Under the pieces are notes generated by a model, which was not told where the DNA came from, did not search any database, and saw only the letters and a program-made list of their open reading frames with translations. The translations under genes and the position numbers were made by a program. This document shows positions 26,115-27,233 of a stretch of DNA of 56,447 bases, piece after piece (position 1 is the first letter of the stretch; each line of letters begins with the position of its first letter). The stretch comes from Rickettsia typhi (GTDB lineage: Bacteria > Pseudomonadota > Alphaproteobacteria > Rickettsiales > UBA1997): contig CAMCSJ010000001.1 in assembly GCA_945878005.1 (NCBI GenBank), forward strand, positions 1-56,447, in the 5' to 3' direction.

Positions 26115-27233
26115 ATGAAATCTGTTTGGCGTAGATTATCAAAAATACAATCGCTTTCAGCGCTTTCTCGAAGTTTATCTTTTTCAAGAAGAAACTCTGT
26201 AACGCCAATCATACCTGAGTCTTATCCTCCTTCCGAGTCCCTTAATCTTCGTCCCGATGGCATTCCTCCTTTGTTTATACCACCTACTAATCAAAACTCT
26301 ACAGGCGATATAACTTCTTCTCCTAGAAGAGATACAGCAGTTTCGGCTAGAGTAGGTTCGGCTGGACTAGTTTCCGCAAGAGCAGATTCGGCTAGACTAG
26401 TTTCGGCAGTATTGGGTTTTAGAACGCCATTTGAACCTGCCCAAGTTCCAGCTCAGATTCATCCTGATGATTCTTTAGATGAAGAACCCAAAATAGAACC
26501 AGTTATAGCAAACTTAAAATATGAATCCTCACCTTTTATCCCTTTTGATCATCGTGAAATCCAATCTCGTGAAAGTCCTGATAATTTGGTTTCAAAACCA
26601 AGATATAATGACATGATTTTTTTTGATCCCAAAGAAAATAGCGATTCACCAAGGGGTTCAGGTGATCAGCGAAGAAAAAAATTTTTAACGGTAATATCAG
26701 CAAATTCAATATTACCTCATGCATCACCTTCTACTTCTCCTGGCAAACAAACCGAAATTTCTGATGATGATATTCAAAATACCTATCAAGAATCATTGAA
26801 AAAAATGAAAGAAATTTTATTACAAATTCAAGAATTGGAATATTCAAAAGAGGAAATTATTGAAGCTTGTCAATATGCACGGCAATTTAAGGGGATTATG
26901 AATGGAAGAGATGGGGTAATTGGAGAATTGAGAAATAAATATTCTGCATTAGATGAAAATAAAATCAAAGAAAAATTTGAAAGATTAAAAACAATCTCAT
27001 TTCTTTTTCAACAAGAATGCTTTAAAAAAGATATTTTTTCAGGACGAGATGAAAATAGTTTGAAATCTCAATATAAATTTGCTAATAGCAAAAATAATCG
27101 CCCCGGACTTAGATTAGCTTATATTCCAGATGAAGCTTTAGAAATGTATGAAAGACATAATGAAGCTGCTGCAGTCGAACTTTCAGCAAGACCAGTTGCT
27201 GCAAGAATGTGTACGCCACGACAAATGATTTAA
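26115..27233 (+). CDS. Orphan protein (372 aa) with bipartite composition: GC-rich Pro/Ser/Arg-rich disordered N-terminal third, AT-rich helical K/E-rich remainder, Arg-containing C-terminal tail
   Basis: Uninterrupted ORF. By hand count, nt 26161-26460 contain 134 G+C of 300, and nt 26761-26820 contain 13 of 60. No family motif was recognised. Confidence 0.65.
   Translation: MKSVWRRLSKIQSLSALSRSLSFSRRNSVTPIIPESYPPSESLNLRPDGIPPLFIPPTNQNSTGDITSSPRRDTAVSARVGSAGLVSARADSARLVSAVLGFRTPFEPAQVPAQIHPDDSLDEEPKIEPVIANLKYESSPFIPFDHREIQSRESPDNLVSKPRYNDMIFFDPKENSDSPRGSGDQRRKKFLTVISANSILPHASPSTSPGKQTEISDDDIQNTYQESLKKMKEILLQIQELEYSKEEIIEACQYARQFKGIMNGRDGVIGELRNKYSALDENKIKEKFERLKTISFLFQQECFKKDIFSGRDENSLKSQYKFANSKNNRPGLRLAYIPDEALEMYERHNEAAAVELSARPVAARMCTPRQMI
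26340..26414 (+). repeat. Five in-frame tandem 15-nt units encoding x-S-A-x-x pentapeptides (VSARV GSAGL VSARA DSARL VSAVL)
   Basis: gtttcggctagagta / ggttcggctggacta / gtttccgcaagagca / gattcggctagacta / gtttcggcagtattg, in frame with the 26115 ORF (codon 76 onward). Confidence 0.8.

Follow-up and report, generated by a model that had tools for sequence, protein, structure and literature searches.

The stretch of DNA analyzed here, called the window throughout, covers positions 1 to 56,447 of contig CAMCSJ010000001.1 (assembly GCA_945878005.1). At 26115..27233 on the plus strand it encodes an orphan protein of 372 amino acids (aa), and the gene proved to be hypervariable among strains of one species on a near-clonal chromosomal background. 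The divergence is limited to the coding sequence and arranged in mosaic blocks, the disordered N-terminal half of the protein contains conserved motifs, and the predicted helical domain near its C-terminus is shared with other proteins. From these properties we judge the chances to be about even that the 372-aa protein is a secreted host-interaction protein, and hence a candidate effector, under diversifying or balancing selection. An initial annotation, made from the DNA alone, had already proposed the gene as a type IV secretion system (T4SS) effector candidate. That proposal stands, but on the new grounds of hypervariability, mosaic alleles, conserved motifs and a shared domain rather than on the specific arguments originally given for it.

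Hypervariability of the gene on a near-clonal chromosome

The open reading frame (ORF) was confirmed from its ATG to its stop codon at 27231–27233, with the N- and C-terminal protein sequences quoted in the initial annotation. A first search of 5.8 billion clustered proteins returned 17 homologues, none of them named and none with a Pfam domain, and the ORF is intact in all 17. Four metagenomic loci, evidently from the same species, were then compared with the window over this gene and twelve flanking genes. The flanking proteins are 93–100% identical across the four loci, with the exception of that encoded by the neighboring orf354 (85% in the most divergent strain, L001), while the identities of the 372-aa protein are 95, 84, 64, and 57%. 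The corresponding ratios of non-synonymous to synonymous substitution (dN/dS, Nei-Gojobori method) are 0.02–0.31 for the flanks and 5.8, 1.4, 1.3, and 1.05 for the 372-aa gene. Synonymous divergence (dS) in the flanks is 0.01–0.12, rising to 0.25 in L001, and that of the N-terminal cassette described below is far above it at 0.3–0.75. Over residues 1–215 as a whole, dN/dS is about 1.0–1.3 with elevated dS, and codons 1–105 have only about 20–60% nucleotide identity to the same-species alleles in codon-aligned windows.

The divergence begins and ends with the gene. Upstream, nucleotide identity to loci L083 and L084 is 92–100% up to position 26078 and drops within the coding sequence. Against L084 in 100-nt steps, it is 38–67% over 26079–26456, 80–95% over the remaining gene and 72% over the tail, and it is again 100% from 27345. 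Because the divergence is bounded by the start and stop codons, its cause works at the level of the protein rather than as a regional mutational effect. The upstream intergenic region (25801..26114, plus strand) is very AT-rich and, judged by nucleotide identity, conserved among strains. It contains a sigma-70-like site at 26059–26086, although matches of this kind are not enriched over shuffled sequences.

The predicted helical domain (residues 216–350) is also variable, with pairwise dN/dS values of 0.8–5.1 even though 51 of its 135 alignment columns (38%) are invariant. Between the window and L084 there are 43 non-synonymous and 2 synonymous differences in the domain (binomial P 0.007), and between L085 and L084 there are 30 and 2 (P 0.047). 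Since more than a third of the domain sites never change, a mean dN/dS near or above 1 implies values well above 1 at the variable sites. These pairwise ratios, which are not a formal site test, are suggestive of positive selection on the domain; with at most two comparisons nominally significant, we have set them aside as proof of it.

Comparison of individual alleles revealed a block structure. The window and L083 differ at 1 position in nt 1–817 of the gene and at 13 in nt 818–889, after which their tails are different. Against L087, the window has 265 differing columns in nt 1–780 and only 4 in nt 781–1119, and L084 and L086 are identical over nt 1–566 and then differ at 78 positions. The N-terminal part otherwise varies most, so that identical N-terminal cassettes on different C-terminal parts call for recombination between alleles or, as a caveat, for switching by the assembler. 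Gene conversion from a paralogue inside the window is ruled out as a source, because the domain profile hidden Markov model (HMM) matches one copy only in the six-frame translation of the 56 kb. Many contigs end at or beside the gene, which is typical assembler behavior at a strain-variable locus, and some alleles could be chimeric; several homologues are cut short or pass into unrelated sequence, as in P0018 and P0021 and at the contig ends of L087 and L088.

Anatomy of the 372-aa protein

AlphaFold2 (AF2) prediction on the family alignment gave a confident helical domain between two disordered regions, with predicted local distance difference test (pLDDT) scores below 50 for residues 1–212 and 353–372. 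Residues 1–135 (26115..26519, plus strand) form a hypervariable disordered cassette rich in Pro, Ser, Arg, and Ala (pLDDT <50), which is the GC-rich part of the gene and begins with a Ser/Arg-rich, acid-free stretch at residues 1–34 (26115..26216, plus strand). Within the cassette, TRF detected a tandem 15-nt (5-aa) repeat at 26339..26408 (plus strand), a 15/30-nt array of 4.6 copies that encodes VSARVGSAGLVSARADSARLVSA; in the alignment this repeat is restricted to window-type alleles. Mean column entropy is 1.2–1.4 over residues 1–135 and falls to 0.78 over residues 136–215, 0.69 over residues 216–350, and 0.35 over residues 305–338.

Residues 136–215 (26520..26759, plus strand) are also predicted to be disordered (pLDDT 34–43), yet they contain the conserved motifs SPFIPFD, PRYNxMIFFDPKEN, DQRRKKFLTVIS, and ASPSTSP, with 14 columns invariant and many others nearly so. 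Two of the motifs, RY..[IV]F[FI]DP..EN and RK.KFL, are retained in P0020, a syntenic orthologue of 31% identity. The segment MIFFDPKEN may resemble the FFAT motifs that bind VAP proteins, a likeness on which we do not rely; the distant orthologue has VFIDPVYEN at this place.

The helical domain (residues 216–350; 26760..27164, plus strand) is the core of the family, and the AF2 model places helices at residues 217–240, 245–257, 265–275, 281–304, and 339–356. When the domain was modeled alone with two distant members added to the alignment, the predicted template modeling score was 0.72 and most 10-residue blocks had pLDDT values of 84–96, with one low-confidence loop. A hypervariable surface patch at residues 273–297 (26932..27003, plus strand) accounts, within 72 nt, for 13 of the 30 columns that differ between the window and L083. 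The most conserved segment of the protein lies at residues 305–338 (27027..27128, plus strand), where 20 of 34 columns are invariant; it reads IFSGRDENSLK ... NNRPGLRLxYIP and forms a loop or hook of the domain model. Of its motifs, GLRLxxIPD and SG..E are present in all distant family members. Variability in the two long helices is periodic in the manner of an alpha-helix (P 0.002 and 0.004, the observed power being reached in 2 and 4 of 1,000 shuffles), which argues for a conserved core and a variable exposed surface. The protein ends in a variable, disordered tail rich in Ala, Pro, and Arg (residues 351–372; 27165..27230, plus strand; pLDDT <50).

Database searches did not connect the protein to any known family. 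Nothing rose above noise in Pfam, NCBIfam, PHROG, and PADLOC, the weak matches being TrbJ (E 0.04) and a PHROG (E 0.027), and Pfam had no family at E≤1. A profile search of all sequences in the Protein Data Bank (PDB) found nothing related; its best match, to Mini-RNase III (E 0.088), was rejected as a chance resemblance of GLRLAYIPDEALEMYERHN. The full-length AF2 model is too disordered for useful structure matching, and Foldseek searches with the confident domain model found no match among 350,542 PDB chains (best E 2.6) or in BFVD (best E 0.98). As modeled, residues 216–350 are the helical domain of a new family without relatives in Pfam, in the PDB or by Foldseek. On direct reading of the sequence there was also no signal peptide, no transmembrane helix and no twin-arginine motif with a hydrophobic region: the protein has no run of 10 or more hydrophobic residues, and the SRRNSV that it does contain is not followed by a hydrophobic region.

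Native origin of the GC-rich front half

The initial annotation had read the GC-rich 5' part as a possible horizontally acquired module in a chimeric gene. Its counts were reproduced for 26161–26460 (134/300, 44.7%) and for 26761–26820 (13/60, 21.7%); for the last 70 nt the recount was 32/70 and not 33. Mean GC in the window is 28.0%, with a standard deviation of 5.3% for 300-nt windows, and the top value among all 56,148 such windows, 45.0%, falls at 26152–26451. As the highest of 56,148, the peak is not a matter of chance. Its source became clear when GC was split by codon position (GC1, GC2, and GC3). Codons 16–115 have a GC1 of 0.52, a GC2 of 0.60, and a GC3 of 0.22, and GC3 for codons 1–140 is 0.20. 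The background for comparison consisted of 1,205 100-codon windows from 30 other genes, with means of 0.41, 0.31, and 0.17 (for GC3, 0.168±0.045). The gene's GC3 is reached by 13% of these background windows and its GC2 by 0.5%. The excess is thus confined to the first two positions, where it reflects Pro, Ser-TCN, Arg, Ala, and Gly codons, while GC3 is native, so that amino-acid composition accounts for the peak and the DNA is that of the genome itself.

Other signs of acquisition were also missing. An exhaustive profile search of 1.84 billion representatives returned 12 proteins, the two weakest of which look spurious, and none of the 12 is a credible relative outside the lineage. A pattern scan of 185,579 GTDB genomes found no homologue, and neither tblastn nor HMM searches found one beside virD4 in 80 related GTDB genomes. 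We searched for att-like repeats of the nearby tRNA-Val and found none, and there is no integrase or other mobile-element gene near the 372-aa gene. The codon-position split, the missing outside homologues and the lack of att-like repeats near tRNA-Val together rule out foreign 5' DNA: the GC-rich front half is native and not an insert. More generally, where the genome is AT-rich, a disordered region can through its amino-acid composition be the whole source of a local GC peak, and a check of GC3 distinguishes this case from foreign DNA.

Composition of the N-terminus and the C-terminal tail

The basic N-terminus noted in the initial annotation is real. The first 34 aa contain 5 Arg, 2 Lys, no Asp or Glu, and 10 Ser or Thr, for a net charge of +7; Arg makes up 14.7% of these residues compared with 3.2% of the proteome, and Ser 26.5% compared with 8.0%. 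Nothing similar occurs among the window's 41 other predicted N-termini. In all 15 full-length alleles the N-terminus is Ser-rich, with a net charge of +1 to +7 and 0–3 acidic residues, and Arg is preferred over Lys despite a Lys-rich, Arg-poor proteome. Conservation of charge and composition despite this turnover of sequence speaks for selection that may act on N-terminal composition itself.

The more specific suggestion that this region is a mitochondrial presequence gained no support. The maximal hydrophobic moment over 18 residues is 0.27–0.53, with z-scores of −1.0 to +1.2 relative to composition-matched shuffles, so that no amphipathic helix was indicated by this measure, a crude stand-in for a trained predictor. 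AF2 predicted an N-terminal helix of 4 low-confidence residues at most. The N-terminus differs in the more distant syntenic orthologue, where it begins with MFNLFGRLPTPPP, and it is acidic in another family member. Both proposed RRxS sites, RRLS and RRNS, are present, but they occur only in window-type alleles, with 0–1 such sites elsewhere, and conserved host-kinase sites were rejected on this account.

At the other end of the protein, the Arg tail was found as annotated, the 18 residues ELSARPVAARMCTPRQMI containing 3 Arg and 1 Glu. The counts are the same for the last 20 aa, AVELSARPVAARMCTPRQMI, where 3 Arg compare with a background mean of 0.6 and Arg is used rather than Lys. The net charge of these 20 residues is +2 in the window and 0 to +5 across alleles, with a background mean of +0.8 and a range of −6 to +6. 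A T4SS signal could take this form, but the tail is only weak evidence for one. The tail had also been said to reuse the SAR motif of the internal repeat; the match at the DNA level is 61% and not meaningful.

A C-terminal domain shared by distant family members

Distant members of the family, encoded by related bacteria and including at least two proteins otherwise unrelated to the 372-aa protein, have in common with it only the helical domain and what follows it. In these members the domain lies at the extreme C-terminus and is followed by 31–47 residues. P0017 (locus L088) has an acidic, Ser/Glu/Lys-rich N-terminus joined to the domain. A paralogous locus, in which kdsA and a gene for an OmpR-type regulator are followed by the paralogues, was found twice (L092, 4524–8339; L091, 1616–5998). 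In L092, a 1,016-aa protein with internally repeated modules ends in the helical domain, as does an adjacent tandem paralogue of about 270 aa that is frameshifted in the contig; L091 has the same arrangement across a scaffold gap. The paralogue tails are rich in Lys and Arg, with a net charge of +5 to +7 over the last 30 aa. GC content of the paralogous loci is 28%, as in the window, and one locus shares its sample of origin with L084.

The repeated module in the 1,016-aa protein and the shorter paralogue has the motif (S)LCG(L/Y/I)xxI(A/S)xY(V/I)K and no Pfam match; its Cys might mark an enzyme active site. Another family fragment, the 94-aa P0019, is listed by JGI as a [quoted passage not shown], a name for which neither its sequence nor family searches gave support.

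The locus and its lineage

The T4SS coupling protein gene virD4 (28488..30332, minus strand) is encoded in the window as an ORF whose orthologues match the Pfam families T4SS-DNA_transf, TrwB_AAD_bind, and TraG-D_C. The distance of 1.25 kb to the 372-aa gene given in the initial annotation is correct (1,254 nt past the stop codon), but lapA and aroE intervene, the orientation is convergent, and the two genes are not co-transcribed. Five loci with long flanks have one gene order: tolQ, orf374, queC(−), tRNA-Val, orf354, the 372-aa gene, lapA(−), aroE(−), virD4(−), recN(−). This order is also kept in a more distant species (GCA_964709615.1, locus L089), where the 372-aa protein is 31% identical to that of the window, the products of the orphans orf374 and orf354 are 46% and 49% identical, and those of the housekeeping flanks are 65–92% identical. 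All loci examined among the 17 first-search homologues have this synteny and belong to one lineage. In the two nearest GTDB genomes virD4-aroE-lapA is kept, but a homologue of the 372-aa gene is missing and nusA-infB stands in its place, and for this reason the proximity of virD4, though conserved within the genus, looks incidental. The synteny break itself was seen at L003 8705–13508 and L005 8743–11168, where lapA is followed by nusA-infB, into which msrA is inserted in L005; virD4-aroE-lapA of the window is instead followed by the 372-aa gene, orf354, tRNA-Val, and queC.

The upstream neighbor orf354 (24736..25800, plus strand) is an orphan without a match in Pfam, NCBIfam, PHROG, or PADLOC and is the second most variable gene of the block. 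Its dN/dS in L001 is 0.31 at the 85% identity given above, where most other flanking genes are 96–99% identical and aroE is 93% identical. Together with orf374 (22578–23702, plus strand), also an orphan, orf354 and the 372-aa gene make up a small block of fast-evolving, lineage-specific genes around queC and tRNA-Val, the tRNA gene lying 1.5 kb upstream of the 372-aa gene. A perfect 22-nt tandem duplication, two copies of AGTTGAATAATTAATATCGCAA at 25791–25834, spans the orf354 stop codon, and the minus strand has a terminator-like hairpin at 25844–25827.

The source of the window is taken to be an uncultured freshwater Rickettsiales bacterium, small and AT-rich, with a VirB/D4-type secretion system. 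Housekeeping and biosynthetic genes of the window include argJ, trpA/B-like genes, an isc cluster, ftsK, tolQ, queC, aroE, recN, and argS. The window VirD4 is 90% identical to that of the lake metagenome-assembled genome (MAG) MsH-30apr19-130 and 72–88% identical to those of dozens of freshwater Rickettsiales MAGs, among them "Rickettsiales bacterium UBA1997". Members of UBA1997 are reported to be small rods that were found by CARD-FISH to be epibionts on freshwater cryptophyte algae, and they have more amino-acid biosynthesis than classical Rickettsiales (bioRxiv 10.1101/2023.01.31.526412).

Three further genes of the window deserve mention. A 2,229-aa ORF directly after the mraZ-rsmH cluster (8485–15174, plus strand) is a giant orphan, in a small AT-rich genome, without a Pfam or NCBIfam match and may be another host-interaction or surface protein. 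A second large orphan, a 1,297-aa ORF downstream of a UvrD-type helicase gene (43446–47339, plus strand), likewise has no match in Pfam or NCBIfam. Finally, a 236-aa eukaryotic-type (alpha) carbonic anhydrase with the lipoprotein-like N-terminus MKIYWKIFLLLNIVACS is encoded at 40052–40762 (plus strand) and could be relevant to a bacterium living on photosynthetic algae.

Discussion

The reading of the 372-aa protein as a secreted host-interaction protein draws on the protein and on its variation. We favor it because the protein lacks signals for Sec, Tat, or the membrane, is disordered over about 210 residues with conserved motifs, and has a small domain with a conserved core and variable faces, and because the gene combines hypervariability limited to the coding sequence, dN/dS of at least 1, cassette exchange, and a shared terminal domain in a T4SS-bearing lineage that is reported from algal cells. 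The population holds many divergent alleles, apparently reshuffled in blocks by intragenic recombination on a near-clonal chromosome, and the preponderance or parity of non-synonymous over synonymous change is what one would expect at a conflict or specificity interface with the host. On this model, the N-terminal half would make allele-specific host contacts, and the C-terminal domain with its tail would serve as a common handle by which the 372-aa protein and its paralogues are exported. Of the possible routes, VirD4 and the T4SS would be the most plausible, with a logic like that of the bipartite BID-type signal. Alternatively, domain and tail may dock these proteins on a common host target, and it is equally possible that the domain is a common host-binding or oligomerization unit with export by another route such as type I secretion. 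We would hold as unlikely the larger proposal that domain and tail represent a new class of C-terminal T4SS or translocation module in freshwater alga-associated Rickettsiales, BID-like but unrelated and attached to at least three unrelated cargoes, with N-terminal cassettes kept diverse by balancing selection against host genotypes and possibly with delivery to a host organelle.

Several observations weigh against a secreted host-interaction protein. We infer secretion, its route, and a host target from anatomy, composition, hypervariability, mosaicism, and domain sharing, which are themselves observed. The tail charge of +2 in the window is within the proteome background, the proximity of virD4 looks incidental, and the paralogous loci lie on other contigs and may not share a genome with the window. 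The dN/dS of about 1 over the disordered half fits neutral drift or poorly alignable sequence as well, only two pairwise comparisons of the domain reach a nominal P<0.05, and Nei-Gojobori (NG86) estimates can be biased at 17% GC3. The window would belong in or near the algal-epibiont family on the basis of VirD4 similarity and gene content. Lastly, the mosaics could in part be the product of assemblers switching between co-occurring alleles in one sample, and assembly chimerism could in this way inflate the apparent recombination. Chimerism cannot create allelic diversity, however, and the existence of deep alleles on a near-clonal background holds regardless of this caveat.

Three other explanations of the gene were considered. 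That the protein is a non-secreted cytoplasmic scaffold or regulator, whose disordered part drifts near-neutrally under relaxed constraint, seems to us improbable, although the dN/dS of about 1.0–1.3 with elevated dS over residues 1–215 is what neutrality predicts, no recognized type of secretion signal is demonstrable, and the tail charge is unremarkable. Relaxed constraint is hard to reconcile with an ORF kept intact in the 17 first-search homologues together with invariant motifs, or with a folded domain in which dN/dS is at least 1 despite 38% invariant columns and variability lies on one helix face. A cassette dS of 0.3–0.75 against 0.01–0.12 in the flanks (to 0.25 in L001) points instead to old alleles that have been maintained or exchanged, block mosaics are not explained by neutral drift, and for a genome streamlined to about 1.2 Mb, a size taken from a closed contig of a relative, a disordered region of 210 residues is unusual. 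Involvement in conflict with phages or between bacteria, as a defence, anti-defence or competition factor, is in our estimate quite improbable. Strain-level hypervariability and modular reshuffling are typical of loci of that kind, tRNA-Val lies 1.5 kb upstream, and the segment from orf354 to the 372-aa gene is absent from the nearest GTDB genomes. Against it, there was no PADLOC or PHROG match, there is no integrase, att-like repeat, or mobile-element gene nearby, the locus is syntenic and single-copy across species, and the protein, most of which is disordered, has linear motifs of the basic and proline-directed Ser/Thr kinds but no enzymatic domain.

The original form of the effector proposal, with a mitochondrial or plastid presequence, host-kinase RRxS sites, and an acquired 5' module, we regard as very unlikely. 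The first 34 aa do have a net charge of +7, no acidic residue, 26% Ser, and 15% Arg, the positive charge and Ser-rich composition are kept in the 15 full-length alleles with Arg strongly favored over Lys, and there is a precedent in the same order in Ats-1 of Anaplasma (PMC2824752). On the other hand, the hydrophobic moment is not above that of shuffled sequences and the AF2 helix has at most 4 residues, RRxS sites occur only in window-type alleles, and the distant orthologue has a different N-terminus and another member an acidic one. Acquisition is left without support by native GC3 and the absence of homologues outside the lineage. As to a plastid target, the cryptophyte plastid has four membranes, and a simple transit peptide would not reach it from the cytosol.

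To our knowledge, almost nothing is known of how the abundant freshwater alga-associated Rickettsiales interact with their hosts, and no effector has been identified for them. The 372-aa gene, which stands out from a clonal chromosome, provides a concrete handle on this interaction and shows the point at which the partner exerts selection, and in time series from lakes its alleles could be used to mark host specificity. Were the C-terminal domain indeed a translocation signal, effector sets of uncultured bacteria could be listed from sequence, and a second structured type of T4SS signal would stand beside BID.

Comparison with known systems

The tandem repeat proteins (TRPs) TRP32, TRP47, and TRP120 of Ehrlichia and similar effectors of Rickettsiales are largely disordered, Ser-rich, and strain-variable, have short tandem repeats but no Sec signal, and probably work by way of short linear motifs and modification of the host. 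The 372-aa protein is like them in its disorder, Ser content, strain variability, tandem repeats, and lack of a Sec signal, and perhaps in this mode of action. The Ehrlichia proteins are acidic type I secretion substrates with long repeat arrays, whereas both ends of the 372-aa protein are basic, the one repeat comprises 4.6 units of 5 aa in some alleles only, and a folded C-terminal domain is present. The wsp gene of Wolbachia, in which hypervariable segments are shuffled by intragenic recombination, resembles the 372-aa gene in the shuffling of such segments on a conserved chromosomal background. Its product carries a signal peptide and forms a beta-barrel in the outer membrane, and the 372-aa protein has neither a signal peptide nor a membrane segment.

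Hypervariability is not known to be a feature of Ats-1. This T4SS substrate of Anaplasma phagocytophilum binds VirD4, is imported into host mitochondria, and has at its N-terminus a cleavable mitochondrial presequence that was predicted by MitoProt and demonstrated experimentally (PMC2824752). Like Ats-1, the 372-aa protein is a Rickettsiales orphan with a basic, acid-poor N-terminus and a net charge of about +2 in its C-terminal 20 aa (Ats-1 data from PMC2824752). The two have no homology, and the N-terminus encoded in the window lacks an amphipathic-helix signal and is not conserved in the distant orthologue.

A parallel in design is the Bartonella BID bipartite signal, in which a four-helix bundle of about 100 aa with a conserved core and a variable surface is followed by a positively charged tail and preceded by varied N-terminal modules (PMC6509941). 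Membership of the BID family was rejected by both sequence and fold searches: the window domain has no Pfam or PDB sequence match, and Foldseek found no PDB chain and no BID entry, the presence of BID structures in the PDB being taken from the three crystal structures reported as solved (PMC6509941). The window domain also differs in having two 24-residue helices with three short ones and an invariant 34-residue loop, and the tail of the window protein is only +2. Nevertheless, as in the BID domains of Bartonella Beps and relaxases, a C-terminal helical domain of about 100–140 aa is followed by a short, unstructured, mostly basic tail and is found in several proteins of an alphaproteobacterium with a T4SS, joined there to N-terminal regions that are unrelated, with a conserved hydrophobic core and a variable surface. 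By analogy, this likeness would be functional and not one of family membership. Taken with the comparisons above, it makes the 372-aa gene a candidate member, though an orphan in sequence, of the fast-evolving, disordered, and modular effectors of host-associated bacteria.

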